A stretch of DNA of 64,000 nt from Bacillota bacterium (GCA_023390655.1 JAEWCL010000015.1:48946-112945), one strand, 5' to 3'; counted from the first letter of the stretch, positions 10,214-29,786 are shown. Notes: generated by a model from the letters alone, not told the origin. Translations and numbers: made by a program.

Positions 10214-11488
10214 CTAACGATATGTTCTGATTACATCCTTGATGCGCTCTTTAATTAACAGTTCCGCAGATACCTTATTATGAGAAGCAAGAACTTTTTC
10301 TTTTTGCTCGGGGAAATATTGGGATATCAATCCGAACGGAAGCTCTGCCGCATTAATATTTTTTATCAGCCGTGCAATGGATGCTTTTACCTCTCCCTCA
10401 TCAAGATAATACCTGCTTCGATCGCTCAGACTAAATTTGCGCGCATATGCCTTATCCTGACTGCTGCCGTGATAGTATTTTCTCCAGTATTTATCATCAC
10501 TCATCAGCTTTGCCTCAAGAGTATCTCGAAAACAGGAGTACCCTCCAGCCGGTGAAAACGGATATAAGATTTTCTCCATGTCTTCAAGCGCAAACAATGA
10601 CTCACGCAATGCAAACGTCAAAGCGGGTCCCACCTTCAAAATCGCGATGCCGTCTTCCCGCATCTTGGAAAGCAATGCCTTAGGCTGATAGTCCGTTGAG
10701 TGACCTTCAAGTACCAAACCTTCAATATTCTTCGCATATTGCGTGAGTGATTGCGCTTTCTGCGAATCATACTTAATAATTGTATTGTCCGCAAATTCAG
10801 CTCCCGGCTGAACGACGACCGCAATAGTCCGTCCCCATGCATTCGCAAGCCCTTCTCTTATAAACGCATCTTTAAATGCAATCAAAGTAGCCTCCAAGTC
10901 TTGTGGTGATGTGATTGCGATTGAGTCTTCATTCTCTGTTGCACCGCCTGGAATTGGCACTTCGCTTCCAATGACGTACACTGGCTTATTATCCCCGGCT
11001 ACAGCTTCTGCGGCCACACAAAGCCTAGCTGCACGTTTTGCAATAATGCTGTTTGGCAGCCTTTGCGTACTAGAGTCGCTTGCAAGACGCATGCTCGTAT
11101 CCAAATGAATTTTGGAGAAACCTGCAGACACATACTGTCTAATGAGTTCCTCCGCCTTTGCCATGGCAATATCTTCGGTCTCGTTTTGCCAAGTCAGCGG
11201 TCCAAGATGATCTCCACCGACGATAAGCTGTCCCGCATCTAAGCCTACTCGAGTTGCTATACGTTGGACATACTTCATAAAATCCGCAGGACTCATTCCC
11301 GTATATCCTCCGAATTGGTTGACCTGATTTGCCGTAGCTTCAATCAGCACTACCAAACCGTTATCCTGGCCATCCTCCATCGCCGCTTCAAGTACAAGCT
11401 CATTTGCACTACAAATGGAACAGATCCCCACACTAGATCCTCTTTTTTGAGCTTGGATGAGATTACGAAAGTATTCGATCGTATCCAT
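10214..11488 (-). CDS. GatZ/KbaZ/AgaZ-family protein (tagatose-phosphate epimerase or aldolase-accessory type)
   Basis: Trimmed to ATG 11488 (AAGGAG upstream). VGICSICSAN...VLIEATANQVNQFGGYTGMSPADF matches the GatZ/KbaZ N-terminus. Confidence 0.85.
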   Translation of the reverse strand: MDTIEYFRNLIQAQKRGSSVGICSICSANELVLEAAMEDGQDNGLVVLIEATANQVNQFGGYTGMSPADFMKYVQRIATRVGLDAGQLIVGGDHLGPLTWQNETEDIAMAKAEELIRQYVSAGFSKIHLDTSMRLASDSSTQRLPNSIIAKRAARLCVAAEAVAGDNKPVYVIGSEVPIPGGATENEDSIAITSPQDLEATLIAFKDAFIREGLANAWGRTIAVVVQPGAEFADNTIIKYDSQKAQSLTQYAKNIEGLVLEGHSTDYQPKALLSKMREDGIAILKVGPALTFALRESLFALEDMEKILYPFSPAGGYSCFRDTLEAKLMSDDKYWRKYYHGSSQDKAYARKFSLSDRSRYYLDEGEVKASIARLIKNINAAELPFGLISQYFPEQKEKVLASHNKVSAELLIKERIKDVIRTYR

Positions 11489-11496
11489 ATTACTCC

Positions 11497-12507
11497 TTAC
11501 TGTACAATGGTCCCGTCCAGATCCCAGAGATCCTTCCAATCGTTTGCACCAGGCCAGAGAAATACCTGTCCTTTGATAAGGCGGCAGTTTCGGTCTACGC
11601 CTTTGAGAATTTCCATTTCGGCATCGCTAAGCGGATCTTCAGTTACGCACCTGAGATTACTCGTATACTCGTGTTCTTTGATCGAAAACGGAATTGGCGT
11701 CTGGCCACGCTGCACCGCCCACTTGATGCAAATAATGGCTGGATGCACGCCATGTGCGTGCGCAATCTGCACAAGCTCCGGTATTTGGATATCAACAACA
11801 TCATCCGCCGTTTTGTCGCGGTCCGGGCGGGTGGGCGAACCAATCGGGCAAAATCCAATGGGCTGGATATTATGCCTTTTCACATAATCAAACAGCTCCG
11901 GTTGCTGAAAGCTGGGATGCAGTTCCATTTCAATCGCAGCGGGCTTAATCTTACACAAGGGCAATACCGCTTCCAGTTTCGGGATGGTCATATTGGACAT
12001 GCCAATATAGCGGGTAAGTCCCATTTCAACGAGCCGTTCGCACTGATGCCACGTTTGCATAAAGCGTTCGACCGAGAAAGGCCTTGAATTGGGATTTCTG
12101 GAATCGCCGTCACAGCCAGGAGCGTGGTAGTTGGCAAACGGCCAATGCACAAAAAACAAGTCCAAATAGTCAAGCCGCAGCTCCTTAAGGCTTTTTGCGC
12201 AGGAAAGCAACACATCGCCCCTGCCATGCATATCGTTCCAAACCTTTGTGGTAATAAACAGTTCTTCACGCCTAACAATCTCGTTGTCAAACGCATCTTG
12301 GAACACATTGCCGATCCTATCTTCATTCTCGTATACCGCAGCGCAATCAAACATGCGATAACCCACCTTGATTGCACCGGATACGGCAGATGATACTTGC
12401 TCTGGCGTAAATCGATCGGATCCAAAAGTTCCCATCCCAATGCAAGGCATCTTGCCACCATCAAACAACGTTCTCTGCATCACTTTCTTGGGGTCAATAA
12501 ATTCCAT
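11497..12507 (-). CDS. aldo/keto reductase
   Basis: Motifs seen: GMGTFG, FDCAAVYENE, LDYLDLFFVHWP. Confidence 0.85.
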   Translation of the reverse strand: MEFIDPKKVMQRTLFDGGKMPCIGMGTFGSDRFTPEQVSSAVSGAIKVGYRMFDCAAVYENEDRIGNVFQDAFDNEIVRREELFITTKVWNDMHGRGDVLLSCAKSLKELRLDYLDLFFVHWPFANYHAPGCDGDSRNPNSRPFSVERFMQTWHQCERLVEMGLTRYIGMSNMTIPKLEAVLPLCKIKPAAIEMELHPSFQQPELFDYVKRHNIQPIGFCPIGSPTRPDRDKTADDVVDIQIPELVQIAHAHGVHPAIICIKWAVQRGQTPIPFSIKEHEYTSNLRCVTEDPLSDAEMEILKGVDRNCRLIKGQVFLWPGANDWKDLWDLDGTIVQ

Positions 12508-12522
12508 TTGCCTTTCCCTCCA

Positions 12523-13572
12523 TCATAAGTTGTTTACCAACAAAATTTTCCCGTTGACCGCGCCTGGCGTTTTAAAGAGTTGAAATGCTTCCTGTGCTCG
12601 GCTCATCGGGAGGCGTTCCCCGATAAGTCCCTCATCGAATTTTAACTTGCCCTGGGCATAATACTCCGCCGTCATACTCCACTCCTTGCCGGGAAACGGG
12701 GCACTGTAGCTCATCCAGGAGCCAGTGAGCTTAAACTCCTTACGGTTCATGTTCTCCCACTCCGCTGGTGTAAAGCTCAATTCGGTGTGTGGTGTTCCTA
12801 TAAAGCAAACCTGCGATTTATTGGCGGCAAGCTTGAATGCGATTTTCATAGTTGCGGTCACGCCCGCAGTCTCAAATACATAGTCGAACCCGCTGCCTCC
12901 GCAGATATCCATTGTGCGATTCATGGAATCCTCTTCACGTGTATTGACCGTGCCGTCAGCCCCCAAGCGTTTTGCAAGTTCCAGCCGGCTGTCACTAATA
13001 TCAAACGCAATTACTTTTTTTGCTCCGAGAAGCTTTGCCCACTGCAATGTAAAAATACCGATCGTTCCCATGCCCAATACAGCGACCGTACCGCCTCCGC
13101 AGAATTCGTTCTGCAGCAGGCCGTGCAGCGCGATCGTGGATGGTTCAAACATAGCTCCCTGCTCAAAAGAGATGGATCGGTCAAATATTACTGCGTTTCG
13201 TTCGGGGATGACAATATAATCCGCATTGCTCCCCTGCTGCCGGGATCCTATGAAGCTGTAGTGCTTGCAAAGTGAATAATTTCCAATCTGGCAGTCCCCG
13301 CAAACCATACACGGGAGCAGCGGCACGCCCGAGACCCTGTCACCCACCTTCACCTTTGTCACGCCCGCGCCAACTTCCACGACTTCACCCGCAAATTCGT
13401 GCCCCAGTACAATCGGGTAAAAATGCACGCCATTGTAGAGCACACGCGGGATATCCGAGCCGCATATACCAGAAACGGCCACTTTTACCTTGATTGTTCC
13501 GTCCGTTACCTGAGGTTCCTCCATATCCAGATACTGAACGTCCTCATTCGCCACAACGACAGCTGCCTTCAT
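12523..13572 (-). CDS. zinc-dependent polyol(-phosphate) dehydrogenase, galactitol-1-P/sorbitol dehydrogenase-like
   Basis: Motifs seen: GICGSD, GHEFAG, CMVCGDCQIGNYSLC, VAVLGMGTIG. Confidence 0.85.
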   Translation of the reverse strand: MKAAVVVANEDVQYLDMEEPQVTDGTIKVKVAVSGICGSDIPRVLYNGVHFYPIVLGHEFAGEVVEVGAGVTKVKVGDRVSGVPLLPCMVCGDCQIGNYSLCKHYSFIGSRQQGSNADYIVIPERNAVIFDRSISFEQGAMFEPSTIALHGLLQNEFCGGGTVAVLGMGTIGIFTLQWAKLLGAKKVIAFDISDSRLELAKRLGADGTVNTREEDSMNRTMDICGGSGFDYVFETAGVTATMKIAFKLAANKSQVCFIGTPHTELSFTPAEWENMNRKEFKLTGSWMSYSAPFPGKEWSMTAEYYAQGKLKFDEGLIGERLPMSRAQEAFQLFKTPGAVNGKILLVNNL

Positions 13573-13580
13573 TTTTTACC

Positions 13581-15092
13581 TCACCGACTCATCAAATTTT
13601 TTAACGCGGCATAAAGCTCGCGATATGTTTCGTAGCCACGGTCATATTCGGCCTTGCGCGCATTATCCGGCTCATGTCTTCTCTTTAGCTGAACTGTTTC
13701 TTCAACCGCTTGGTCGAAGTCTCTGTACATGCCCACACCAACACCGGCAAGAAGTGCCGCCCCCAACGTTGTGGCAGTATCCGAAGCCGGAATCTCAATG
13801 GGCTTTCCGGTAACGTCGGATTTGATTTGTGTCCAAATCAGCGAGTTCGCGGCACCGCCCATGGACCGCATTGTCCAAACCGAAGCGCCCGCCTGAGAAG
13901 CAATCTCAAGGTTATGTCGCAGCGAATATGCCACGCCTTCCATGACTGCGCGCACCATGTGTGCCTTCGTCTTGGAATAGTCCAACCCATAAAACTGTCC
14001 TTTTGCTTTTTCATCCCAAATTGGCGAACGCTCGCCGGCCATATAGGGCAGAAATATCATGCCTTCGCTGCCGGCGGGCACTGTAGCGGCCAACATTCCG
14101 AGCCGCTCAAACGCGGAACCGCCTTCTGCCACCGCGCTCTGTTTTTCTTCAAAACCAAACTGATCCTGAAACCAGCGTAACGCACCACCACCTCCCGTTG
14201 TGCCTCCTTGCAGCAACCATCTTCCCGGAACCACATGAAAACTTAAAATAAGCCTTGGATCTGCGCAGTACTGTTTTAGACAAATGCTCAGCCCTCCGGC
14301 CTGCCCGCCCTGCTCTTGCGTCTGACCCTCATGGAGTACACCGGCACCTAGCGTACCGCAGGCGGCATCGAGTCCGCCGGCGATAACCGGCGTTCCTTCT
14401 TTAAGTCCCATTTTTTGAGCTGCGCTTAACGAAAGCTTACCGACGACCTCTTCACAGGCCACAATTTCAGGCAAAAAACCGGCTTTTATTCCAAGGGAAT
14501 CGCGCATTCTATCATCCCAGCGTCCCTTTTTCATGTCAAAGCAATGCAACCCATAGCCTTGGGAGATATCCTGTGTTATCGCACCTGTCATGCGGAACAC
14601 AATAAAGCTGTTGGATTGGAGTATTTTATCAATTCTTCGGTATGTATCAGGCAGGGTTTCTTTATACCAGATAATTTTTCCAGTTGTGTACTGAGCCTTG
14701 AGGGGATTCCCACTTACGGAAAAGAGCTCTTCCGCCCCTATGGTTTCGTTTAATTTCCTACAGATCGCCTCACTGCGCGTATCCATCCAAATCGGATTTC
14801 GGGTGAGCACTTCTCCTTGGCTATCGATTGCAATTGCTGCCCAGCTCTGTCCGTCCACACCAATGCCTGCAATATCTCCTGGATTGATAGCACTATTTTC
14901 AATGAGCCTTTTAGTACCGCTGCAAACTGCCGCCCACCAATCGTCTGGCTCCTGCTCAGCAAAACCCGGTGCAGGATAAAAAATCGGATATTCTTCTGTA
15001 GCAGTACCCACAACTTTTCCGTCACGCTCAAAAATTGCAATCTTGCACGCACTGGTTCCGATATCTATGCCCAATAGTAATTCTCTCGGCAT
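13581..15092 (-). CDS. FGGY-family carbohydrate kinase (xylulokinase-like)
   Basis: LLGIDIGTSACKIAIF N-terminus, a 503-aa two-domain length, and GGAANSLIWTQI near the C-terminus. Confidence 0.9.
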   Translation of the reverse strand: MPRELLLGIDIGTSACKIAIFERDGKVVGTATEEYPIFYPAPGFAEQEPDDWWAAVCSGTKRLIENSAINPGDIAGIGVDGQSWAAIAIDSQGEVLTRNPIWMDTRSEAICRKLNETIGAEELFSVSGNPLKAQYTTGKIIWYKETLPDTYRRIDKILQSNSFIVFRMTGAITQDISQGYGLHCFDMKKGRWDDRMRDSLGIKAGFLPEIVACEEVVGKLSLSAAQKMGLKEGTPVIAGGLDAACGTLGAGVLHEGQTQEQGGQAGGLSICLKQYCADPRLILSFHVVPGRWLLQGGTTGGGGALRWFQDQFGFEEKQSAVAEGGSAFERLGMLAATVPAGSEGMIFLPYMAGERSPIWDEKAKGQFYGLDYSKTKAHMVRAVMEGVAYSLRHNLEIASQAGASVWTMRSMGGAANSLIWTQIKSDVTGKPIEIPASDTATTLGAALLAGVGVGMYRDFDQAVEETVQLKRRHEPDNARKAEYDRGYETYRELYAALKNLMSR

Positions 15093-15094
15093 TT

Positions 15095-15541
15095 TTACTT
15101 GACAACTCCTTTTTGAATCATGACATTTGCATAAATTGCTTCCTCACCTGATTGGACAATACAATAGGATTTTTTTGCTTCCTTATAAAATTCAAATCTA
15201 TCTAGGAAGCCGATGATTGCTTCCCCGCGCACATCGTGCCGGGTTGCGATACTTTTATATTCATCCCAAATAGGAATTGCGAGATCGCGGTCACATTCCA
15301 TTGTTTGCATCAATTTGATGGGCTGTTCAATATATGCGTCACACGGAATTACTTTTAAAATAGCCTCAAGCAACTCCGTGCCGGGAATGCCGTCCATACG
15401 CAGGAACTTACAGCCTCCTTCCGCCGCAAACCGTTTTCCAGGAAAATTCGCATCTCCAATGACAATGACATCACTATGTCCCATTTCACAAAGCACGGAC
15501 AATAGTTCAGGTGAAAGAAGTTTTGGCATTCCCAACAGCAT
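15095..15541 (-). CDS. RbsD/FucU-family sugar mutarotase (FucU-like)
   Basis: LLSPELLSVLCEMGHSDVIVIGDANFP closely resembles the N-terminus of E. coli FucU. Confidence 0.85.
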   Translation of the reverse strand: MLLGMPKLLSPELLSVLCEMGHSDVIVIGDANFPGKRFAAEGGCKFLRMDGIPGTELLEAILKVIPCDAYIEQPIKLMQTMECDRDLAIPIWDEYKSIATRHDVRGEAIIGFLDRFEFYKEAKKSYCIVQSGEEAIYANVMIQKGVVK

Positions 15542-15594
15542 CGGTTATACTCCTTTTCTGTCAATAAAAACCCGTTAACAGCCGACCTAAGATT

Positions 15595-15623
15595 GGGGGG
15601 GCAGCTAGCATTTACTGCCCCCC
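15595..15623 (-). other. intercistronic stem-loop immediately 3' of the SBP gene
   Basis: GGGGGGGCAG...CTGCCCCCC, a 9-bp GC stem located 14 nt after the SBP stop. Confidence 0.45.
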
Positions 15624-15636
15624 AGGATCAAGTTTT

Positions 15637-16788
15637 CTATTCGTAGAGCAACGGTGCAATTTTCGGATCATCCATGTTCTCGCTGGTATAATACTGGCAG
15701 CCTGTGTCCACAAGAGGCTCAACCTTTTCGCCGTTGAGGGTCTTGACGGCAAGTTCAACCGCGTAATAACCAATCATATAAGGATCTTGGGTAACAGCGC
15801 CGTGGAACCATTTGTTCTTGACTGCGTTAAGTAAGGTCGCGCCAGAGTCAAAGCCAACGACAGTGATGTCCTTGTAACGGCCATTTTCACGGTCAAGGTC
15901 GGAACCGTCCGCAGTTGCAGCCAACATTCCATCAACAGAACCGGAATTGGTGCAGAAGACACCAAGCGGGGCTCTTTGAATGACGGCCTGTGCAGCAGTC
16001 TGGCAGTCGGTAACGTTTGTAGACGCAGCGATGGAGACAAGAATTTCAACCGCCATATCGCCAGAGCTGGAAGCTTTATTCCACTTATCATGGCCAGTTA
16101 CAGCGACGAGACCAGGTTGTGCGGCATCACAAAGTTCGAACATCTTATCAACAAACCCTGTTGTACGGCCAGTAATAGAAGCTGACGTCGCATCCTGACT
16201 TATAACAGCAATCACGACAGGCTTATCCTTTGTTGCAGCTTTGATGGCTGCACCGATGGATTCAATCTTGAACATGGTATCGGCCGCAAGCGCACCTGCA
16301 GCTTCATTATCCGTAGAAGCCGTAGATACGATTGAGCCTTGGGGAGCATTTGGAACGCCCGAGTCAAAACCAATTACCGGAATATTCTTGCTCATGCAGG
16401 CATTCAGCTGCTCAGTCACGGATTCGGTATCAAGCGCAGCAAGGCACAGCGCAGCAGGGTTCTTTGCAAGAACAGCATTGAGCATGTCAACCTGGATGTT
16501 GATGTCGGACTCCGAAGGCGGTCCGTCAAATGTGAAATCGACATTGTACTTTTCCGCGGCATCTTTCGCACCCAATTGTACGGTCTGCCAGAATTTATGC
16601 TGGAACCCTTTGGAGATGATCGCAATGTAAGGTTTCCCGGCAGCGGGTTCAGGTTCCGTTGTCTCTGCCGTGGTGGGAGCAGGAGCAGGGGTAGGTTCTG
16701 TGGAAGTAACCGGGGTCTGCGGTGCCGCGCACGCCGCCATCGAGAGTACCATGGCAAACGCAACCAGCAATGCCCAAGCCTTCTTCAT
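15637..16788 (-). CDS. ribose/galactose-type (PBP-I) sugar ABC substrate-binding lipoprotein
   Basis: Signal peptide with lipobox (LSMAAC), a Pro/Thr/Ala/Glu linker, and a PBP-I-like body. Confidence 0.85.
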   Translation of the reverse strand: MKKAWALLVAFAMVLSMAACAAPQTPVTSTEPTPAPAPTTAETTEPEPAAGKPYIAIISKGFQHKFWQTVQLGAKDAAEKYNVDFTFDGPPSESDINIQVDMLNAVLAKNPAALCLAALDTESVTEQLNACMSKNIPVIGFDSGVPNAPQGSIVSTASTDNEAAGALAADTMFKIESIGAAIKAATKDKPVVIAVISQDATSASITGRTTGFVDKMFELCDAAQPGLVAVTGHDKWNKASSSGDMAVEILVSIAASTNVTDCQTAAQAVIQRAPLGVFCTNSGSVDGMLAATADGSDLDRENGRYKDITVVGFDSGATLLNAVKNKWFHGAVTQDPYMIGYYAVELAVKTLNGEKVEPLVDTGCQYYTSENMDDPKIAPLLYE

Positions 16789-16862
16789 AATGTGGTCCTC
16801 CTTTAATAATGTTTTTATATCCCGGGATGCCCGGAATTCATATGCAAAAGGACGAAAGGGGG

Positions 16863-17837
16863 CTAGAATTTTTTCAGCTTGTTACTTTGACGGATACGGT
16901 ACTGGTCCAAAAGAACCGCGCCAATCACAACCGCGCCTGTAAAAAACGTTTGCCAGTGGCTTTGCAGGCCCATAGACATGAGCCCCTGCTTAAGAACACT
17001 CATAATAAACACACCAATGATCGTACCTATAAGCGTGCCGGTACCACCGCTCATACTAGTACCGCCTATTACAACGCCCGCAATCCCCAAGAGTTCCTGC
17101 CCGTTACCGGTAGAAGGAATAATCGAAGTATACACGGCCGCATACATAATCCCCGCCAAACCACTGCAAAATCCGCAGAATGTATAAATTGATGTAAGCC
17201 AGGGACGTATTTTAATTCCGGAAAGGCGTGCCGCCTCACTATTGGAGCCGATTGCAAATGTATACCGCCCAAACCTTGTTTTGTTTAGCAGAACGAACGC
17301 AATCAGAAAGAAAACCAGCAGCCAGGCTGCACCTAGTGGAATACCGCTCGTCGTTTTATAAAACACATTTTTAAACCAGCCATCGGCTGTTCCGAATGTA
17401 GGGTAGCGCATTGTCTGGACTTTTGTGACGATAGCCCCAAATCCCATACCCATCATCATCATGCCAAGCGTGGCAATAAAGGGGGGCAGCTTCAAATAGG
17501 CAATCAGCAAGCCGTTCAGGAACCCGATAAACGTTGCAAGCGCGACCACAAGAAGCAGGCACCAACCCATTGGCCAATGAAGAACGTTATAAGCAGCACC
17601 GCCGACCAAGGCAGCACACATCATTGTGGTTCCGAGCGAAAGATCAATCCCTCCGGTAATGATGACAAACGTGACGCCAATTGCCATAAATCCGATATAG
17701 TAGGAGCCATCAAGAATATTAATCAGATAATCTGTGGAAAAAAAGTTTTTACCGAAGATGGAGAAGAACATATACAGAATTACCAATACCGCCGGGGCCA
17801 GGAACTTTGTAATATCAATTTTCTTTTTGCTATTCAT
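16863..17837 (-). CDS. sugar ABC transporter permease (RbsC-like, CUT2)
   Basis: 324-aa polytopic protein with a GGIDLSLG motif. Confidence 0.9.
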   Translation of the reverse strand: MNSKKKIDITKFLAPAVLVILYMFFSIFGKNFFSTDYLINILDGSYYIGFMAIGVTFVIITGGIDLSLGTTMMCAALVGGAAYNVLHWPMGWCLLLVVALATFIGFLNGLLIAYLKLPPFIATLGMMMMGMGFGAIVTKVQTMRYPTFGTADGWFKNVFYKTTSGIPLGAAWLLVFFLIAFVLLNKTRFGRYTFAIGSNSEAARLSGIKIRPWLTSIYTFCGFCSGLAGIMYAAVYTSIIPSTGNGQELLGIAGVVIGGTSMSGGTGTLIGTIIGVFIMSVLKQGLMSMGLQSHWQTFFTGAVVIGAVLLDQYRIRQSNKLKKF

Positions 17838-17848
17838 TCAAGTATCCC

Positions 17849-19339
17849 TCACATATTCATAGTTGCCAGTGACATGATCTTTTCCTGCGTTACATCGGCT
17901 ATATCAAGTTCGCCTGTTATGCAGCCCTCGCGCATTACAATGAGCCGATCGCTCATGCGCAGCAATTCAGGCATCTCGGACGAGATCATAATAATCGACT
18001 TCCCCTCTTCAGCAAGCGAATTCATCAGCTTATAAATCTCCTGCTTGGCCCCCACATCGATCCCGCGCGTAGGTTCATCAAAAATCAGGATGTCGCTATT
18101 TCGAATCAACCACTTGGAAACGACCACTTTCTGTTGGTTGCCGCCCGAGAGATTCTTGACGAGCTGCTTTGAAGACGGGGTTTTAATGCCAATTTTTTTG
18201 ACGAATTCATCGGATATCTTTTCAATCTTTGTGTCATTTGTGAAGGGACCAAACATGAACTGTTCCAAACTCGCCATCACACAGTTATCTCGGACGCTTA
18301 AATTAACGGCTAAGCCCAGCGCTTTTCTGTCTTCTGACAGGTAGCAAATGCCGTTTTTAATTGCATCGCTGGGAGATTTAATGCTGACCTTCCTGCCATT
18401 TATGATGATCTCCCCTCCGGTTGCCGTATCCGCACCAAACAATGCGCGCATGGTCTCGGTACGCCCGGCCCCCATAAGACCTGCGAAGCCGAGAATTTCT
18501 CCTTTTCTTAATTCAAAAGAAACATCCTTTACGTTGTTTCCTATGAGATGCTTTACTTGCAGCACGACCGGAGCATCCGGAGGCACATTGCTCCTCGTCT
18601 TTGGTTCCTCATAAATCGTGCGTCCGACCATCATACTGATGATTTCTTCTTTTGTAGTAGCATTTGTATCAACCGTACCTACATATTGGCCGTCACGCAT
18701 CACCGTAATACGGTCGCTGATTTGCGCAAGCTCATCTAGACGATGTGAGATATATACGATTCCATGCCCCTTATCCTTCAAACCGCGAATTACTTTGAAG
18801 AGTTCCTGAATTTCATTTTCAGTCAGCGCTGCAGTGGGTTCATCCATAATAAGCAACTCGCTCTCATAAGAAAGCGCCTTTGCGATTTCCACCATTTGCT
18901 GCTTTGCGACGGTCAACCTTCCTGCTGGGATCGTCGGCTCAATGCTCACATTGAGGGCATTTAGCATTTCTCGCGCTTGCTTGTTTTCACTTATCTGATC
19001 TATAAACATCCCTCGTTTGGGTTCTTTTCCGATAAAGATATTCTGCGATACCGTAAGATGGGGCATCAAATTCAGTTCCTGGTGAATAATGCCGATTCCC
19101 ATTTCTTGCGCATGCAGTGGGTCCGTAGGCTCAATTTCTTTTCCACGCAACTTTATGGATCCGGCATCCTTTGTGTAGATACCGGACAAGATTTTCATCA
19201 GCGTGGACTTTCCTGCTCCATTTTCGCCCACGAGTGCAAGTACCTCCCCTTTGTTTACACAAAGAGAGGCGTTATCCAATGCGTGAACGCCCGGAAAGTA
19301 CTTTTGAATCCCCGTCATTTCAAGCAATACTTCAGCCAC
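17849..19339 (-). CDS. sugar ABC transporter ATP-binding protein (two NBDs, RbsA-like)
   Basis: Walker A GENGAGKST, signature LSGGNQQK, and a duplicated NBD. A GTG start at 19339 after AAGGGA is preferred over the track's TTG at 19357. Confidence 0.9.
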   Translation of the reverse strand: MAEVLLEMTGIQKYFPGVHALDNASLCVNKGEVLALVGENGAGKSTLMKILSGIYTKDAGSIKLRGKEIEPTDPLHAQEMGIGIIHQELNLMPHLTVSQNIFIGKEPKRGMFIDQISENKQAREMLNALNVSIEPTIPAGRLTVAKQQMVEIAKALSYESELLIMDEPTAALTENEIQELFKVIRGLKDKGHGIVYISHRLDELAQISDRITVMRDGQYVGTVDTNATTKEEIISMMVGRTIYEEPKTRSNVPPDAPVVLQVKHLIGNNVKDVSFELRKGEILGFAGLMGAGRTETMRALFGADTATGGEIIINGRKVSIKSPSDAIKNGICYLSEDRKALGLAVNLSVRDNCVMASLEQFMFGPFTNDTKIEKISDEFVKKIGIKTPSSKQLVKNLSGGNQQKVVVSKWLIRNSDILIFDEPTRGIDVGAKQEIYKLMNSLAEEGKSIIMISSEMPELLRMSDRLIVMREGCITGELDIADVTQEKIMSLATMNM

Positions 19340-19477
19340 AATGGTATCCCTTCTCAATTGAATTGTATTGAAATTGTTTTAATGAATTATTCCGATCAGC
19401 ACACCTTATCGCGAATTGCTTAATATTAATTATATTGTTGGGAAATTTGTTGTCAACGAATAACGATTAAATAAATA

Positions 19478-19491
19478 TTGAAACGTTTTAC
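19478..19491. promoter_or_regulatory. candidate LacI-type operator (CG-centred pseudo-palindrome)
   Basis: TTGAAACGTTTTAC, with 5 of 7 half-site symmetry. It is one of three ATTGAAA heptamers in the divergent intergenic region (the others start at 19367 and 19522). Confidence 0.35.
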
Positions 19492-19615
19492 TATAAAGCA
19501 TAACCGGCAATACACCCCCCCATTGAAACTGTTGATTTTGTTTCCCGGTATGTGTTATCTTATTGCTATGGGGAGGCTCGTTTGCCGCCCCGCCATTTAT
19601 AACAGGCGGTTAAAC

Positions 19616-21850
19616 ATGAGCACAATCAAAGATGTCGCAAACCATTCAGGGGTATCTATTGGAACCGTGTCCAATTATCTCACCGGTACCAAGCATGTTC
19701 ACCCTGAGACAGCAAAAAAAATAAAACTTGCTATTGATGCGCTGGACTACAAACCTAATTCATACGCAAAGAATTTACGAACAAACTCCAATAGAGAAAT
19801 TGGTGTAGTTTTGCCAAACACAAGCGAGCAATACTATGCATTTTTATTGACCGGAATTGAGGCGGAATTAAAAAAGGCCGGATATTATCTCAATCTTGCC
19901 CTTTCTAACGATGTGCCGGAAACCGAAAAAATGATCATCGGCAACTTTATGAAGAAGAATATCAGCGGTTTGATTGTGATGTCCTGTCAACACAATACCG
20001 AATTCTATGATCAGATTACAAAGACGCCCATTTTGTTTATTGACCGAAAGGTCACCTCTTCTGATGCAAATTTCGTCTCTTTTGATCAATACAACACCAT
20101 GTCATTTTTGATGTCACAGCTGACCGAACGCGGCTGCGAAAGAATTGCTCTCGTTGCTGGTCCGGAGCAATTTTCTTGTGAACGTGAATACGCCCAAGCC
20201 TATCGCGATTATTACAAAGCGCGCGGCGAAGATGCAGATGAAAAATGTATCTTTCACATCAACATGACAAAAGAGGAGGCATTTCGCACCGGCATCTCCC
20301 TTTTTCAGGACGTGGAGCCTCAAGCAATTATATCCACATCACGCATGCTGACAAACGGCTTGGAACATGCAGCGAGCTTGGCAGGAATTTCTTTGTACAA
20401 CGATATTGTTATGATATCTATTGGCCAAGAAACATTCTCCAACTTTTTAAAATATAACAACATCATTGTTACTATGCGTCCAGCCAACTACCTCGGAGTG
20501 AAGGCCGCCCGTTTACTCTTGTCTAATATTGATAGCCCTCTGATGTTTGAAAAGCAGCAAATCATATTGGAAGATAAAATTGTCGGCAAAAGGCTTTTTG
20601 AATCCATAAAAGCAGTACCCGTAACGCTTCCGGCAGCGAAGCAAAGGCTGCGTGTATTGTTTCTTGATTCCCCCAACGCGCACGGAATTATTCGTACGCA
20701 TTCAGTTTTTACCAGGAAAACAGGCATTGATGTTGATGTGACACTCTGCGAGCATGGCACACTACTTTCTAAATTAATGGATAAAGAATACCTCTCCAAC
20801 TTTGATGTTTGCATGTACGATAACCCTTGGCTAGACATCCTTGTTGCAGAAGACTTGTTTTTGGATATTACGAGTTATGTCGACTCGGATACGATTGATA
20901 CCTCCACCTTCCTGACAGGACTTTTGGAGAAAGTTGGCTATGTAGGCGGAAAATATTTCGGGATTCCTTTTCTTTTCGGCCCACAACTGCTGCTTTACCG
21001 CCGCGACCTATTTGAAAACCCTCATATGTGCGATCTTTTTGAAAAGAAATATCGCGAGAAGTTGCGCGTTCCGCGCACTTGGTTTGAGTTCAACGTTGTA
21101 AGCAGCTTCTTCACCCGCACCCTGAATCCCAATTCGCCCGTGGAGTTCGGTACATCATTTTCAGCACGTAACGCCGCAACGCTGCTCCCCGAGTTGATGC
21201 CCCGCGTTTGGGCCTACAATAGCAACATCTTTGATAGCGAGGGTATCCCTATTGTCTCTTCAACCTTATTTAAAAAGGGCGTTAGCAGCCTTGTCGAGGC
21301 ATTTAATTATGCGCCTCCACAAACTCTGACCTATAGTGTCGAAAACACTGTTGAGGACTTTTATCTCGGCAAAACAGCAATGCTAGTCAGTTTTGCATCT
21401 TTCATTGCTGACGTTAACAATACTGCAAAGTCTAAGATAATTGGGAAAATAGGCTACGCAAATATTCCAGGGAACTGCTCTGTTCTTGGCAGCTGGGGCC
21501 TCGCCATTCCCTCATCTAACGGGAATCCCTCTGCCGCCTATGAATTCATTCGGTGGACATGTGATCCCGATATGAGTAGCTATTTTGCCATCTTGGATGG
21601 CCAATCGCCGCTTAAGAATGTTTACACAAACGACGAGCTGGCAAACCACTATCCATGGCTGCCATTAATATACAAAACATTTTCCGGGAACAAGCAGCGA
21701 AAATCAGTTAAGCGCAAGGACGGGACGCTGATTCCAATCACATTAATTGAGGCTTTGATTTATGAGCAGATAATGAAGATTATAACTCAAGACATTTCGA
21801 TTGACGATGCTCTGGCCGGACTGAACGAACAGCTGGCAGCACTAATGTAG
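19616..21850 (+). CDS. LacI-family regulator fused to a C-terminal ABC family-1 solute-binding-protein-like domain
   Basis: Trimmed to ATG 19616 (744 aa). It has an HTH_LacI (MSTIKDVANHSGVSIGTVSNYL), a PBP-I core, then an SBP-like region (GIDVDVT, PRTWFEF, GKIGYANIPG, AYEFIRWTCDP). There is no signal peptide or TM segment. Confidence 0.8.
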   Translation: MSTIKDVANHSGVSIGTVSNYLTGTKHVHPETAKKIKLAIDALDYKPNSYAKNLRTNSNREIGVVLPNTSEQYYAFLLTGIEAELKKAGYYLNLALSNDVPETEKMIIGNFMKKNISGLIVMSCQHNTEFYDQITKTPILFIDRKVTSSDANFVSFDQYNTMSFLMSQLTERGCERIALVAGPEQFSCEREYAQAYRDYYKARGEDADEKCIFHINMTKEEAFRTGISLFQDVEPQAIISTSRMLTNGLEHAASLAGISLYNDIVMISIGQETFSNFLKYNNIIVTMRPANYLGVKAARLLLSNIDSPLMFEKQQIILEDKIVGKRLFESIKAVPVTLPAAKQRLRVLFLDSPNAHGIIRTHSVFTRKTGIDVDVTLCEHGTLLSKLMDKEYLSNFDVCMYDNPWLDILVAEDLFLDITSYVDSDTIDTSTFLTGLLEKVGYVGGKYFGIPFLFGPQLLLYRRDLFENPHMCDLFEKKYREKLRVPRTWFEFNVVSSFFTRTLNPNSPVEFGTSFSARNAATLLPELMPRVWAYNSNIFDSEGIPIVSSTLFKKGVSSLVEAFNYAPPQTLTYSVENTVEDFYLGKTAMLVSFASFIADVNNTAKSKIIGKIGYANIPGNCSVLGSWGLAIPSSNGNPSAAYEFIRWTCDPDMSSYFAILDGQSPLKNVYTNDELANHYPWLPLIYKTFSGNKQRKSVKRKDGTLIPITLIEALIYEQIMKIITQDISIDDALAGLNEQLAALM

Positions 21851-21942: not shown

Positions 21943-23952
21943 TTACGGATATTCAATAAATGATACCGCCCTATTATCTTCAGCATATTGCATACCCTCT
22001 TGGACGGGTATCCTGCTCCCAGCACGTACAAAAAGTGGTATTATCCCGATTGGTGCATCTATTTCGACATATTGCCCACCTTCATGGTATTCATTCGTCC
22101 AAAAGTCGAACCATCCGGTTCCTTTTGGGAGGTAACAGCGCTTCACTTTGGCCGCGCATTCAATTCGGATATTGCCTTTATCAAAATACATCGGCTCCGT
22201 CACGGGACACACCAGAATGCTGTCTCCGAACATGAATTCATCGTCTATAACTGTTGAATAGGAATCATCCGGAAAGTCAAACAAAAGACTGCGCATAATT
22301 GTGTAATGCTCATCCGTGACGCGTCTCACCATCTCCACGATATACGGCATTAGCCGATAACGTAACCGTATAGCTTGTTTGATCGCACCTTGGAATATAT
22401 CTCCATAATTCCAAAACTCCCTTGGCGTGTCCGTGCCGTGAGAACGGAAAATCGGCAAAAAGGCACAAAACTGCATCCATCTTGTATAAAGCTCTTGATA
22501 CGCCATGTCACCGATGCCGAGATCATATTCGCCGTTCCAAAACCAAACCGGCGCGGCATCAGGGTCTCCCTTCCATTTCCTCCAACACTCCGTTCCACCT
22601 ACGAAAAACCCACCCGCATCTACGGTCCAATAGGGTATGCCGCACATTGAGATACTGATACCCTTGGCAATCTCTCTTTTAAGTTCAAGCCAACTGGCCG
22701 AAGTATCCCCGGCCCAGAGTATTACACCATATTTCTGTATGCCTGCATATCCAGACCTCGAAAGATTCACGACCGGTTTATTGGGCTGATTTTCATAAAT
22801 CCCTTTTGCGTGCATCAAACCATACAGATTCACTTTAGCGGCGTCAAGGTATTTTTCATGCTCGCCCCCAACAAGCTCATAGCGGTCTCGCTCGCTCTTT
22901 TTGACTTCACCGCACCAATCGGGCGTCGTGAACGGCTCGGTATTATCGCACCACCAGCCGTCAAAGCCGCCACGATACAGCTCATTTTCCATCTGCTCCC
23001 AGTAGACTCTGCGGGCATTTTCGTCAAAAGAGTTGTAAGTGGAATAATCGTTAAGCAGCATTCCTTTTTCCGCAAGCTGCGCATGATCGCTACCACCACT
23101 GTTCATGTTGGGCCAGACAGAAATCAGCGTGCGGATATTGATATTGTGAAGGTATCTGTTCATTGCCGCAACATCGGGAAAGCGCGCTTGATCAAGATGC
23201 TTATCCCCCCAGAGATCATCTTTCCAAGTCTTCCAGTCCTGAATCATGACGTCAATTGGCACATTCATGTCTCGGTATGCATTCGCGACGTTAATAAGTT
23301 CATTCTGCGTGTAATACCTTTCCTTGGATTGCATAAACCCCAATGCCCATTTCGGCAACGGTGCCGCCCTGCCGGTAAGTCCCCGATAACCAGCCACGAC
23401 CTCATCCAGGCTTCCTGTAATCACGTAGAAATCCGCCTGCTCAACACACTCTAACGTAACAACCGTTGTCTCTCCCGTATCGTCAAAAACCATCAGAGAC
23501 GAGCAATCAAACAGCACGCCGTACCCCTTGCTGGAAATTAGCATAGGCATCGCAATGCGCATGTTATGCTGATATAAATATTCAATCTTTCCGCGCTTGT
23601 TTAGAATTCCATCTTCATCTTGTCCAAGTCCGTAGATGTGTTCGCCCTCGCCGAATCGAAATTCAATGCATGCGCGGTATGCAACCCGATCAAAGTACTT
23701 TACCAGGTTTTCAATGTAGGTTCTCTGTCCGTCAACGGTTTTAATTACTTTGATGATGGGTTTACCATCCGGCTTATATTTGAAAACCTCTCTTTTCTCC
23801 AAGGTCACGTTTACTACTTCAATGGGACAAATGTTAATTGGTTCGCCGTCCATCATGTCCCGCTCCACGAAATCAGATACATTCTGGAGCCCCGAACCGG
23901 CCGTGTAGACACATCGCGTAATATTATGCCGTATTTTAAGGAATCGCTGCAT
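21943..23952 (-). CDS. glycoside hydrolase family 31 (alpha-glucosidase/alpha-xylosidase-like)
   Basis: Motifs seen: KGYGVLFD, GFDGWWCDNTEPF (nucleophile region), LSRSGYAGIQKY, WAGDTSASW. Confidence 0.85.
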   Translation of the reverse strand: MQRFLKIRHNITRCVYTAGSGLQNVSDFVERDMMDGEPINICPIEVVNVTLEKREVFKYKPDGKPIIKVIKTVDGQRTYIENLVKYFDRVAYRACIEFRFGEGEHIYGLGQDEDGILNKRGKIEYLYQHNMRIAMPMLISSKGYGVLFDCSSLMVFDDTGETTVVTLECVEQADFYVITGSLDEVVAGYRGLTGRAAPLPKWALGFMQSKERYYTQNELINVANAYRDMNVPIDVMIQDWKTWKDDLWGDKHLDQARFPDVAAMNRYLHNINIRTLISVWPNMNSGGSDHAQLAEKGMLLNDYSTYNSFDENARRVYWEQMENELYRGGFDGWWCDNTEPFTTPDWCGEVKKSERDRYELVGGEHEKYLDAAKVNLYGLMHAKGIYENQPNKPVVNLSRSGYAGIQKYGVILWAGDTSASWLELKREIAKGISISMCGIPYWTVDAGGFFVGGTECWRKWKGDPDAAPVWFWNGEYDLGIGDMAYQELYTRWMQFCAFLPIFRSHGTDTPREFWNYGDIFQGAIKQAIRLRYRLMPYIVEMVRRVTDEHYTIMRSLLFDFPDDSYSTVIDDEFMFGDSILVCPVTEPMYFDKGNIRIECAAKVKRCYLPKGTGWFDFWTNEYHEGGQYVEIDAPIGIIPLFVRAGSRIPVQEGMQYAEDNRAVSFIEYP

Positions 23953-23956
23953 ATCA

Positions 23957-24781
23957 TCATCCCTTTACAGCACCCGCTGTAATACCCTTTACAATGTATT
24001 TCTGGCCCAACAAATAAACGGCCACCACGGGCAGGCTGGTTAATACAATATCAGCACAGACCAAATTCCAATCTTTAAAGTACATGCCAAAGAAGTTATA
24101 AACCGCAAGTGTCATCGGCCATTTTGCTGAATTTCCGAGGAAATAGAGTGGCATTACAAACTCGTTCCAAGTGTTTAGGAACGTCAGCACCATGACCGTA
24201 ACCAGTACAGGCCTGAGGAGAGGCAATATAATACTAATGAAAAGCCTGAATGGCGTACAGCCATCGACGATCGCCGCTTCGTCAATATCGCGAGGTATCT
24301 TGCTAATGAAACCATAGATCAAAAACACATTAAACGGCATCTGTACGGCTGAATACAGAAGAATGATTCCGATTTGCTTGTTCATTAACTGGGTAATCTG
24401 CATCACCTTCATCAGCGCAACAAAGTTGATAGGCATAGCGATTCCAAGTACAATAAACATATATAGAAAATTGTTCAGTTTGCTCCGATTTCGCGAAAGT
24501 ACATATGCCGCCATAGCCGCCAACGCTGTGGTGAGCAATACGCTGCCGCCCGAATACAAGAGACTATTTAGAAAAGCCGTTCCCAGTTTGCCTTTTTCAA
24601 TTACCTCTGTGAAATTGCTCCATTCAAAGGATGCAGGCCATGAAAGGGACATATTGGATGCCGCTTCACTTGTTTTAAAGGAATTGATAAGAATTAGCAC
24701 TAGGGGAGCAAGCAGCAGGATCGATAAGATCCACGTTAGAATGTTCACGCCATATATTCCAAGCATCTTTCTCATTTTCAT
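23957..24781 (-). CDS. carbohydrate ABC transporter permease (CUT1, MalG-like)
   Basis: 274 aa with six hydrophobic segments and an EAA-like loop (DIDEAAIVDGCTPFRLF). Confidence 0.9.
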   Translation of the reverse strand: MKMRKMLGIYGVNILTWILSILLLAPLVLILINSFKTSEAASNMSLSWPASFEWSNFTEVIEKGKLGTAFLNSLLYSGGSVLLTTALAAMAAYVLSRNRSKLNNFLYMFIVLGIAMPINFVALMKVMQITQLMNKQIGIILLYSAVQMPFNVFLIYGFISKIPRDIDEAAIVDGCTPFRLFISIILPLLRPVLVTVMVLTFLNTWNEFVMPLYFLGNSAKWPMTLAVYNFFGMYFKDWNLVCADIVLTSLPVVAVYLLGQKYIVKGITAGAVKG

Positions 24782-25647
24782 TATTCAGGCACCTCGTCTT
24801 TTGTCATACCTTTAATCAAAAAGTAGCCCACTATCAACATAAATGCGAACATTATGCTTGAAAGGGTCGTGCCAACCGCATAGCGGCCCAACCCAAATTC
24901 TTTGTAGACGCTCGTATATAGAACTTCTGTCGCATATCCTGGGCCGCCGTTCGTAAGTGCATACACTGTGTCAAACACCTTAAGGCCATAAATGACGTTA
25001 AGCACGGTCGTTACAGTTAAAACCGGCATAAGCATAGGCAGCGTGATGGATCTGAATTTCTGCCAGCCGTTTGCCCCATCGATGTCTGCAGCTTCGTAGT
25101 ATGTTGGAGAGATAGACATGATGCCTGCGATGAAGATCGTCATGATGTACCCCATCCCCTTCCATATATCTACGCCCATTACAGACCAGAATGCTAGCCT
25201 TGGGTCTGCGAGCCACTTTGGTCCTTTGATGCCGAAAATGTCAAGGAAGGTATTCATTAAACCGACTTCAGGATTCAAGATTGACCTGAAGATCATGCCA
25301 ACAATCAACGCAGAGAGTACCGCCGGAATATACATGATTGCCCGATGCATGTTAAGTAAAAAGACTTTCTTTGTCAGCAGTACAGCTAATAACAATCCTA
25401 GAACATTTTTTACAATGGTCGTCACAAAGGTAAACAGAATGGTGTTTCCCAAATATGTAAGATAGTTCTCATCCGCAGAAAGTACTGTCTTGAAGTTATC
25501 AAGAGTGAAGATGAGCTTATCTGAATATGCAGACCAATTTGTAAAGGAATATCCGATACCTACCAGACCGGGAACGACAAACAATATCACGTATAGCACA
25601 AGTGCGCCAAAGGCGAAATAAGTAGGATACATTTTTCTAAGATGCAT
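24781..25647 (-). CDS. carbohydrate ABC transporter permease (CUT1, MalF-like)
   Basis: EAA loop YYEAADIDGANGWQKF. The start was moved to ATG 25647, which has AGGAG 8 nt upstream. Confidence 0.85.
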   Translation of the reverse strand: MHLRKMYPTYFAFGALVLYVILFVVPGLVGIGYSFTNWSAYSDKLIFTLDNFKTVLSADENYLTYLGNTILFTFVTTIVKNVLGLLLAVLLTKKVFLLNMHRAIMYIPAVLSALIVGMIFRSILNPEVGLMNTFLDIFGIKGPKWLADPRLAFWSVMGVDIWKGMGYIMTIFIAGIMSISPTYYEAADIDGANGWQKFRSITLPMLMPVLTVTTVLNVIYGLKVFDTVYALTNGGPGYATEVLYTSVYKEFGLGRYAVGTTLSSIMFAFMLIVGYFLIKGMTKDEVPE

Positions 25648-25698
25648 TATTCTAGCTCCTGTTAATATGCCATTCGACTTTTCTATCAATTACCCGAA

Positions 25699-25725
25699 GG
25701 GGCAAGCGATAATTTCACTTGCCCC
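25699..25725 (-). other. intercistronic stem-loop 3' of the SBP gene
   Basis: GGGGCAAG...CTTGCCCC inverted repeat between the SBP stop (25784) and the permease RBS. Confidence 0.45.
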
Positions 25726-25783
25726 TTTTCTCTATTACGGCGCCGTTCTTATCGGATGAGCCTATATTGATTTATGCAAAAGA

Positions 25784-27133: not shown

Positions 27134-27285
27134 GGCTTCCTCCTCGTATTTGACAAGCTTTCACTTGCCATTTAAAATAAATTGATACCCTAAGAATTAT
27201 TATATATGTCCAAGCAGTAAAGGGAATGGATGCCTTCCCCCAATTCCATGTATCATTTTAACCAGTCCATCTTGAGGAAACCATT

Positions 27286-29055: not shown

Positions 29056-29786
29056 TGAAATTTCGAGTAATCGTGGCAGATGACGAAAAGCTCATTGCCG
29101 CAAGCATTGCGCGAAATATCGAAAAGGCAAATGATGCCTTTTCGGTAGTGAGCATTGCCTATGATGGCGCTGAAGCTTATGCCCTTGTTCAAAGCCAGGC
29201 GCCTCACGTCGTCTTCAGCGACATCAAGATGCCGGAAATGGATGGGCTTGAGTTAATTAGACATATCTCACAAGAATATCCTGCCATAAAAACCATCATC
29301 GTCAGCGGCTATAATGATTTTGAATTAGCGCAGTCCGCGCTTCAGTGTAGCGCAACCGACTATATTTTAAAGCCCATAAACCCTTTCATTCTTCAAAGAA
29401 CGCTCAATAAGCTTGAGCGCACACTTCTCGCCGAAAAAAATATGCTATTGGTTGACCGTGAGAATAATTCGTTAGATATCTACAATAGCATTGTAGCTTA
29501 TATCGCCCATAATTATGCGGAGCAAATTAACTTTACTAAAATCGCCTCACAATATGGCTTCTCTGCCGCTTATCTAACCAAGATTTTCAAAAAGCACAGC
29601 GGCATACCGTCCGGAAGATATTTGAACGAATATCGAATTAATGTAGCCAAGAAGTTATTGTTGGACACCGATCTTTCAATAAAAGCCATTGCTGAGAAAG
29701 TTGGATTCTTCGATCAGTTTCATTTCAGCAAAAATTTCCGAAATGTCGTTGGCATATGCCCTACTCAATTTAGAAAAAATCAGTAG
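29055..29786 (+). CDS. response regulator with AraC-type HTH output (YesN-like)
   Basis: Start ATG 29055 overlaps the kinase stop (TAATG). The receiver has a DIKMPEMDG segment, and the C-terminus is AraC-type HTH. Confidence 0.9.
   Translation: MKFRVIVADDEKLIAASIARNIEKANDAFSVVSIAYDGAEAYALVQSQAPHVVFSDIKMPEMDGLELIRHISQEYPAIKTIIVSGYNDFELAQSALQCSATDYILKPINPFILQRTLNKLERTLLAEKNMLLVDRENNSLDIYNSIVAYIAHNYAEQINFTKIASQYGFSAAYLTKIFKKHSGIPSGRYLNEYRINVAKKLLLDTDLSIKAIAEKVGFFDQFHFSKNFRNVVGICPTQFRKNQ

Follow-up and report, generated by a model that had tools for sequence, protein, structure and literature searches.

A LacI-type regulator with a complete solute-binding-protein domain: a widespread, misannotated subfamily with a predicted operator beside a CUT2 sugar operon

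Can a full-size transporter-type solute-binding protein (SBP) serve inside the cell, as part of a transcription factor? The question is raised by a gene in a 64,000-nucleotide stretch of a Bacillota genome (GCA_023390655.1, JAEWCL010000015.1:48946-112945; hereafter the window), which an earlier reading of the sequence, the original prediction, described as encoding a LacI-type regulator with an additional SBP domain. According to reviews, SBPs are located outside the cytosol (PMC8050422). The analysis presented here shows that the fused architecture is real and that it represents a widespread, misannotated and uncharacterised three-domain subfamily of LacI/GalR proteins. It also yields a candidate operator in the region shared with the divergently transcribed operon and a graded view of which domain may sense the effector.

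The open reading frame (ORF) runs from ATG 19616 to the stop codon that ends at 21850 and gives 744 aa on translation, and each of the peptides that had been quoted as family hallmarks (LRVLFLDSPN, TGIDVDVT, PRTWFEF, GKTAMLVSF, GKIGYANIPG and AYEFIRWTCDP) is found in the product. Its Shine-Dalgarno (SD) sequence, AGGCGG, is invariant in an alignment of five intergenic regions, comprising the window and four orthologous loci. All domains assigned by the original prediction score above their Pfam cutoffs. The helix-turn-helix (HTH) domain HTH_LacI reaches 49.8 bits (cutoff 27), residues 60-305 match Peripla_BP_1 (42.9 versus 22.2 bits), Peripla_BP_3 is also above its cutoff (28.8 versus 26.5 bits), and the C-terminal half is recognised by SBP_bac_1 (residues 368-647; 67.9 versus 26 bits) and SBP_bac_8 (residues 365-667; 62.9 versus 27 bits). 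The coordinates of all parts are listed in Table 1. Profile alignment (hhalign) relates the core to E. coli LacI with a probability of 99.8, and in a phmmer search the SBP domain matches the solved SBP 5IAI with an E value of 2.3e-20 and 22% identity over ~400 residues. None of the NCBIfam family models reaches its cutoff for the regulator, the top score being 126 bits against 390.

Structure prediction leads to the same partition. The AlphaFold model, based on 59 homologues, has a pLDDT (per-residue confidence) of 89.3 and a pTM (predicted template-modelling score) of 0.76, with residues 331-337 as the only disordered internal stretch. Searched against the PDB with Foldseek, its N-terminal half superposes on whole RbsR, CcpA and PurR (target TM-score 0.72-0.75) and its C-terminal half on whole SBPs (0.86 over 399 aa for 5IAI), and no solved structure spans both halves. 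A 19-residue Kyte-Doolittle window detects no transmembrane segment, with a maximum mean of 1.51 that lies far from the junction, and the linker in front of the SBP domain contains neither a signal peptide nor a lipobox, in agreement with what had been claimed. Given the absence of a hydrophobic segment and of an export or lipidation signal in the linker, the regulator is cytoplasmic. A secreted or membrane-anchored protein, considered as an alternative, is ruled out by the lack of any hydrophobic segment. The data support a one-component cytoplasmic LacI-type regulator that carries a full extra SBP domain.

The trivial explanation, that two genes, one for a LacI protein and another for an SBP, were joined by a frameshift or misassembly, has practically no chance of being correct. 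Only the unusual length speaks for it, whereas identical ORF boundaries recur across hundreds of independent assemblies as well as isolate genomes, and the junction lacks the signal peptide of a separate SBP. A word-indexed search returned homologues in 108 clusters at 90% identity, nearly all of them 720-790 aa long, with the same Pfam set and with identities ranging from 99% to 22%. When 1.84 billion representatives at 50% identity were searched with a profile, the 150 best hits were all single-stretch, full-length matches, the 150th still scoring 620 bits. One conserved peptide pattern alone retrieves at least 461 relatives from metagenome contigs, including human-gut and bioreactor samples, and isolate genomes with such proteins include Flexilinea flocculi, Muricomes sp. 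OA1, Faecalicatena contorta and Acetivibrio clariflavus. The survey of this architecture that had been proposed with the original prediction thus reveals the fusion in hundreds of independent assemblies, and the concern raised there, that two real genes had been merged by a frameshift, is dispelled by the full-length homologues in many assemblies and isolates. Overall, the family extends from gut Clostridia to Chloroflexota and comprises hundreds of clusters at 50% identity.

In databases, these proteins go by other names. RefSeq calls family members "extracellular solute-binding protein", and JGI lists some as "multiple sugar transport system substrate-binding protein", designations that are wrong because an HTH domain is present and an export signal is absent. 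Because of such transport-protein names, inventories of genomes and metagenomes, those of human-gut data among them, count cytoplasmic regulators with the components of transporters. A literature search for the combination of LacI and SBP_bac_1 domains, which covered a broad comparison of LacI regulons (PMC4052901) and a review on the signalling roles of SBPs (PMC8050422) and was not exhaustive, found no description of it.

The genes that surround family members vary widely. Among 64 metagenome loci of at least 6 kb, CUT2-type components lie within 4 kb of the regulator gene in 22 and CUT1-type components in 4. One regulator gene is embedded in a CUT2 operon that also encodes an FGGY kinase, a SIS protein and a ribulose-phosphate epimerase, and another is divergent from a CUT1 operon. 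The A. clariflavus member adjoins a GFO/IDH oxidoreductase and a sugar isomerase, and in Muricomes the divergent genes encode an NMT1-type ABC transporter together with a sulfatase. Such widely differing contexts point to a general regulator design instead of a one-off. In two distant members (L065, 6341-8110; L071, 2410-4092), the regulator gene is directly followed by genes for a secreted SBP and CUT1 permeases. These secreted SBPs have a twin-arginine-like signal (TRRxFLG) and are 25-27% identical to the SBP domain of the regulator. The idea that the SBP domain is a recent duplicate of a neighbouring transporter SBP was rejected, since identities amount to only 20-27% in the window and in loci with a secreted SBP downstream.

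How does this protein compare with known systems? With the LacI/GalR repressors (GalR, RbsR, CcpA, PurR and LacI), it shares the HTH_LacI domain, the leucine-lever hinge, the type I periplasmic-binding-protein (PBP-I) core and a CG-centred palindrome beside a sugar operon. However, these two-domain proteins usually have ~330-360 aa instead of 744, lack the extra ~400-aa SBP_bac_1 domain behind the core, and possess the canonical pocket residues (R197, N246 and D274 in LacI) that are missing here. Cytoplasmic sensors with a single PBP-fold module are well established and include the PBP-II-like effector domains of LysR-type regulators and E. coli XylR, which combines a PBP-I module with an AraC domain; the LacI-SBP proteins, by contrast, have two PBP folds of different classes in series, the second of which is a full-size transporter-type SBP and not a domain of reduced size as in LysR-type proteins. 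With the SBPs of CUT1-type transporters, of which 5IAI and 4RYA are closest, they have in common a complete two-lobe type II fold that exceeds the SBP_bac_1 and SBP_bac_8 cutoffs, but the domain of the regulator has no export signal, starts at residue 343 and is fused to a transcription factor. Finally, periplasmic-binding proteins have been joined to DNA-binding domains to produce engineered, ligand-responsive PBP-DBD chimeras (Juarez et al., 2018, PMC6079105). The LacI-SBP proteins are natural and differ from them in keeping an intact LacI core between the DNA-binding and SBP domains.

Which DNA site the regulator recognises was addressed by comparing 16 orthologous loci (L001-L016; species-representative genomes, Bacillota and Christensenellaceae metagenome-assembled genomes, 53-77% identity). 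Phylogenetic footprinting over this set converged on a single operator, TATTGAAWCGTTTCAATT, an 18-bp palindrome. Upstream of the regulator gene, all 16 loci have a CG-centred palindrome of the consensus TATTGAATCGTTTCAATT, once or twice each; 27 sites were footprinted in 17 loci. The palindrome is also found in the two closest relatives (L025 and L026) and in Flexilinea, a member of a different phylum. A position weight matrix (PWM) trained on the orthologous loci only, with the window held out, assigns 24.3 bits to positions 19476-19493 in a scan of the 64-kb window, compared with 12.3 bits for the runner-up. All sites of more than 20 bits in the 16 genome loci and the window are confined to the spacer between the regulator and ATPase genes. 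The operator core is the CG-centred form TTGAAACGTTTTAC that the original prediction had singled out. In LacI and PurR, the hinge-helix leucine inserts at the central CpG of a palindromic operator. The corresponding features are all present here, with a modelled helix at residues 49-56, a conserved L54 and the footprinted CG-centred palindrome; A51 and L54 are each conserved in at least 90% of 270 sequences. L54 and the central CG would thus fit hinge-helix binding of the LacI/PurR type. In the wider family, 17 of 61 non-redundant loci have, upstream of the regulator gene, a palindrome that is centred on CG and matches in 6 or all 7 of its arm pairs, as opposed to 1.8 in shuffled sequences. 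A CcpA catabolite-responsive element (cre) was considered as an alternative identity of the palindrome and rejected, because its half-site TTGAAWCG has, judged by eye, a T at the conserved G of cre, and because sites above 20 bits in the 16 genome loci and the window occur solely beside the regulator gene even though the flanks hold other sugar operons.

The spacer itself (19340-19615) measures 276 bp, close to the ~275 bp estimated before, if the ATPase start is placed at the conserved GTG 19339 (VAEVLLEM...). An Rfam scan of this region gave no match at E values up to 1. The predicted leader of the regulator mRNA contains a G+C-rich hairpin, GGGGAGGC...GCCGCCCC (window 19570-19592, plus strand), whose 65-nt fold has a free energy of -19.2 kcal/mol (z -1.87), and a CCGCC located downstream would offer the SD sequence AGGCGG an alternative pairing partner. 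Neither of the two closest relatives conserves this hairpin, which has no Rfam match.

The gene on the other side of the spacer, which encodes an RbsA-like ATPase, is divergent from the regulator gene in 16 of 16 loci, and the order and orientation of the genes behind it are the same as far as the contigs extend. The complete series through the GatZ-like gene is found in 12 of the 16 loci and is partial in L001, L002 (where it reaches the aldo-keto reductase gene), L009 and L014. The arrangement recurs in Flexilinea, except that GatZ gives way to a PfkB kinase and a class II aldolase, and genes for a fucose isomerase and a second FGGY kinase come after the regulator gene there. The assignment of the divergent operon as the control target, made in the original prediction, is supported by this synteny across 16 loci and Flexilinea, by the restriction of the conserved palindrome to this one spacer and by the situation on the opposite side of the regulator gene, where the GH31/CUT1 cluster is unconserved and lacks an operator-like site. 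The transporter encoded in the partner operon is of the CUT2 type (BPD_transp_2, Peripla_BP_4) in all 16 loci and has an SBP of the PBP-I type, unlike the BPD_transp_1 permeases that would be cognate to a CUT1-type SBP.

The position of the operator relative to the predicted promoters bears on the mode of control. A script recovers the operon promoter in 15 of 17 loci, with 11-12 of 12 consensus positions and a spacer of 16-17 nt, those of L012 and L014 being placed by eye. In the window, transcription is predicted to start at about 19422 (minus strand) for the operon and at about 19568 (plus strand) for the regulator gene. Relative to the predicted operon start, the operator is centred at -62.5 +/- 1 in all 17 loci when judged by eye and in 15 of them by script, and at -59.5 in Flexilinea. 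On the regulator side, the TGTGTTATCTTATT element of the promoter is kept in the two closest relatives, and the orthologues have TATAAT at the same place. Eight loci (L003, L004, L005, L008, L009, L010, L012 and L016) contain a second full operator at -49.5/-50.5 of the regulator promoter, which is absent from the window and its two closest relatives. If the predicted starts are right, the protein would not be seated on the core promoter.

This geometry raises the possibility that the protein, with or without its ligand, acts as an activator that recruits RNA polymerase (RNAP) through the C-terminal domain of its alpha subunit from -62.5/-50.5, in a manner similar to CcpA or Cra, and thereby switches on the operon and its own gene. 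The distance between operator and promoter, upstream of -35, is fixed in 15-17 of 17 loci, the second operator lies at -49.5/-50.5 of the regulator promoter, and in a distant paralogue from Muricomes, the perfect palindrome TCAAATCGATTTGA is located at -51.5 relative to a promoter of 11/12. GalR provides a precedent, since from its operator OE at -60.5, close to the position seen here, it activates galP2, represses galP1 through RNAP contact and pairs with OI at +53.5 (PMC4693257). Nevertheless, activation is only a tentative option. A promoter with 11-12 of 12 consensus positions in 15 of 17 loci by script is atypical for activator dependence, and in other subfamilies the palindrome covers the start site or follows the -10 element, the classical position of a repressor, as in the paralogous loci L055, L058, L074, L078 and L093, where CG-centred palindromes are centred at +10.5 to +14.5 of strong promoter-like sites. 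Moreover, LacI-family proteins are mostly repressors.

The heptamer ATTGAAA, which had drawn attention to the spacer, indeed starts at 19367, 19477 and 19522, amounting to three copies in 276 bp compared with 0.107 expected from shuffles of the region (P = 0.00025, for a word chosen post hoc). Its copies are not equivalent sites, as had been assumed, because only the one at 19477 is part of the operator, of which it forms the left half. The copy at 19367 is located in the operon leader, 28 nt ahead of the start codon, among several TTGAA/TTCAA words. Counted over the 50 nt that precede the ATPase start, such words are enriched (18 versus 3.2 expected over 17 loci; 0 of 2000 shuffles, with kinship ignored) and recur in 12 of the 17 loci. 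Their spacing, often TTGAAnTTCAA, differs from that of the operator and is wrong for a normal dimer site, so that the cluster at 19355-19383 is possibly an auxiliary low-affinity site at most. Elements of the form TTGAAnTTCA(A) are found 5-15 nt upstream of the ATPase SD sequence in L004, L005, L006, L008 and L011, reading TTGAATTTCAA in L005, L006 and L011 and lacking the last A in L004 and L008; their half-sites are those of the operator, set 1 nt apart instead of 4. An auxiliary site, a site for another factor and an RNA element are all candidates for their role. The third copy occupies the place where other orthologues have the second operator and is not conserved in L025 or L026. It may be due to chance or a relic of a promoter-proximal operator. 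Its interpretation as a deletion relic is plausible by position, but the word is absent from the two closest relatives and the alignment gives no support for homology.

Having two binding-protein folds in series, which of them does the regulator use for sensing? In known LacI structures, R197, N246 and D274 ligate the hydroxyl groups of the sugar. According to profile alignment, the equivalents in the core are Y192, S242 and G270, and across 59 members these columns hold C, Y, F, A or S, S in 47 of 59, and G in 40 of 59 but never D. As an internal control, the ordinary LacI paralogue encoded at 31570-32547 of the window has retained R, N and D. In the 270-sequence alignment, columns conserved to at least 90% number 28 in the SBP domain versus 3 in the LacI core. 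We also determined subfamily-specific positions, defined as those conserved within the orthologous group but different in distant members, and mapped the clefts by profile alignments to E. coli MBP and LacI, with pocket residues taken from the literature. Subfamily-specific positions account for 8 of 25 in the cleft-equivalent segments of the SBP domain (3.4 expected, P 0.012), whereas the equivalents of the LacI pocket show no enrichment (2 of 16 versus 1.6 expected). All three domains diverge in step, which indicates that none of them is decaying. The missing triad in the core and the clustering of subfamily-specific residues in the SBP cleft suggest that the SBP domain is probably the principal, specificity-determining sensor. 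The nearest solved relatives of this domain are polyol SBPs, namely 5IAI, which holds ribitol, and 4RYA, deposited as a sorbitol SBP, and the operon contributes two oxidoreductases of polyol type. On the strength of the ribitol complex, our best guess for the effector is a polyol or ketose intermediate.

The original prediction had instead proposed two different ligand-binding modules with two-signal logic. In such an integrator, the core and the SBP domain would bind different small molecules, such as the sugar taken up and an intermediate of the polyol or ketose-phosphate type, and release of the DNA would require one or both. Both domains are indeed complete folds under purifying selection with similar rates of divergence, the pocket equivalents Y73/Y74, D143, F156 and R288 of the core are conserved, and Y73, C188 and T218 behave as subfamily-specific positions. 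Set against this are the absence of R197/N246/D274 equivalents, the unenriched pocket positions and the mere three family-wide invariant columns of the core, and integration of two signals therefore seems unlikely to us. Given the missing triad, the ratio of 28 to 3 invariant columns and the cleft enrichment, sensing by the SBP domain on its own is no less likely than sensing by both modules.

The SBP domain could also have a role other than sensing, as an oligomerisation or partner-docking module in a protein that detects its effector elsewhere, for example by bridging the main operator and the half-sites near the ribosome-binding site (RBS) in a dimer of dimers, or by docking on another protein. 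It is attached at the point where LacI bears its tetramerisation helix, many of its residues are invariant across subfamilies in different operons and could mark a common protein interface, and an operator at -62.5 combined with half-site clusters in the leader recalls the OE/OI looping of GalR. Yet, the domain has kept both lobes and an intact cleft and superposes on a ligand-bound SBP with a TM-score of 0.86, the cleft equivalents are subfamily-specific, and the leader words are mis-spaced for a dimer site. GalR-type control would include an internal operator ~11 turns away; downstream of the predicted start, the operon leader shows only half-site-like words of non-operator spacing. The spacings of paired operators (14, 19, 36, 66, 67, 80, 89, 111, 131 and 282 bp) display no helical phasing, which speaks against looping between them. 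A purely structural SBP domain is, in our estimation, improbable.

Overall, we favour, at slightly better than even odds, a model in which a LacI-type dimer occupies the operator and represses until relieved by an effector, with the SBP domain as the main sensor. The dimer would contact the palindrome through its two HTH domains. Because the operator lies upstream of the -35 boxes, at -62.5 for the operon and at -50.5 for the regulator promoter where a second copy exists, control would involve contact with, or exclusion of, the RNAP alpha C-terminal domain and the UP-element region, possibly assisted by the half-site cluster near the RBS, instead of simple occlusion of the core promoter; the repression of galP1 by GalR bound at OE is the closest precedent. 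Repression is favoured over activation by the classical repressor positions of the palindromes in other subfamilies and by the prevailing mode of action of LacI proteins. The effector would be sensed mainly by the C-terminal domain, whose closure on the ligand may be transmitted through the short linker to the LacI core, acting mostly as a scaffold for dimerisation and transduction, and from there to the hinge helices.

Several points weigh against this model. The cleft mapping could be off by one or two residues, the P value of 0.012 is modest and was obtained with phylogenetically related sequences, and the promoters and transcription starts are consensus predictions. The pocket equivalents Y73, Y74, C124, D143, F156 and R288 are still well conserved, and given these residues the core may bind something. 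The SBP domain, with 20-27% identity, is not a recent copy of the SBP of the neighbouring transporter, and a fixed upstream operator at -62.5/-50.5 is equally expected of an activator. The most specific version of the proposal, in which the SBP domain is the real and possibly the sole effector sensor, the LacI core a transducing scaffold and RNAP is contacted from -62.5/-50.5, strikes us as somewhat doubtful.

A full-size SBP fold has thus been recruited inside the cell, within a LacI-type regulator, in a large and diverse family found beside many uptake and catabolic operons. In this family, allostery across two consecutive binding-protein folds, as well as LacI-type control from upstream of -35, can be studied in a natural setting, and the map of operator and promoters makes the system directly testable. 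If the SBP domain is the real sensor, the family would constitute an unrecognised class of one-component sensors, the natural counterpart of engineered PBP-DBD biosensors. Since the ligand range of SBPs is very wide, the natural scaffold of a LacI head and an SBP could serve as a biosensor template (compare PMC6079105).

Table 1. Coordinates of the regulator, its domains and the associated DNA elements in the window.
Feature	Position	Strand	Basis
LacI-SBP regulator gene	19616..21850, stop included	+	744 aa by translation; full-length homologues from 99% to 22% identity
HTH_LacI domain (residues 3-48) and hinge helix (49-56, leucine lever L54)	19622..19783	+	Pfam PF00356; modelled helices 4-11, 15-23, 30-43, 49-56
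LacI-type PBP-I core, residues 60-330, effector pocket non-canonical	19793..20605	+	Peripla_BP_1; Foldseek RbsR/CcpA/PurR
Flexible interdomain linker KIVGKRLFESIKAVPVTLPAAKQ, residues 331-342	20606..20641	+	pLDDT <50 at 331-337; no hydrophobic segment; no conserved columns
Complete cytoplasmic SBP_bac_1 (type II periplasmic-binding-protein) domain, residues 343-744	20642..21847	+	Pfam, phmmer, Foldseek
Predicted operator TATTGAAACGTTTTACTA, CG-centred palindrome, centre 19484/19485	19476..19493	.	PWM 24.3 bits; sites in 16/16 loci, L025, L026 and Flexilinea
Predicted promoter of divergent operon: TTGACA 19456..19451, 16 nt, TATAAT 19434..19429	19429..19456	-	12/12 consensus match
Predicted regulator promoter: TTGATT 19532-19537, 18 nt, TATCTT 19556-19561, preceded by TGn (extended -10)	19532..19561	+	script
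Third ATTGAAA, abutting -35 of the regulator promoter	19522..19528	+	PWM score under the 12-bit listing threshold
Operator-like half-site cluster CAATTGAATTGTATTGAAATTGTTTTAAT in the operon 5' leader, just upstream of the SD sequence	19355..19383	.	TTGAA/TTCAA counts
Predicted target operon: RbsA-like ATPase (17849-19339), permease, Peripla_BP_4 SBP, RbsD/FucU mutarotase, FGGY kinase, Zn-dehydrogenase, aldo-keto reductase, GatZ/KbaZ-like	10214..19339	-	Pfam, NCBIfam

The genes around the regulator are largely those described in the original prediction, except that its "polyol kinase" is an FGGY (xylulokinase-like) kinase, which scores 376 bits against the xylulokinase model (cutoff 380). With two polyol-type oxidoreductases, an aldo-keto reductase and a Zn-dependent GatD-like dehydrogenase, the operon looks like an oxidoreductive route from an aldose via a polyol and a ketose to a ketose phosphate. 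As listed, the GatZ-like ORF (10214-11539) begins with TTG at 11539 and shares 43 nt with the end of the aldo-keto reductase ORF (11497-12507); GatZ translation probably begins further downstream.

On its other side, the regulator gene is convergent with a GH31 gene (21943-23952, minus strand), as noted originally, and no terminator was detected between the two. The GH31 gene is not syntenic across the 16 loci. It belongs to a group (21943-29786) in which GH31, two CUT1 permease genes and an SBP gene on the minus strand are divergent from genes for a YesM-like histidine kinase (27286-29055) and an AraC-type response regulator (29025-29786). Control of this GH31/CUT1 cluster by the LacI-SBP protein was considered and rejected, given that the 64 kb contain no other operator-like site, that the cluster is not syntenic and that it has its own kinase/regulator pair, by which it is probably controlled. 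Further along, the ordinary two-domain LacI paralogue (325 aa, 31570-32547) is situated upstream of a gene for a CUT1 SBP (32839-34221).

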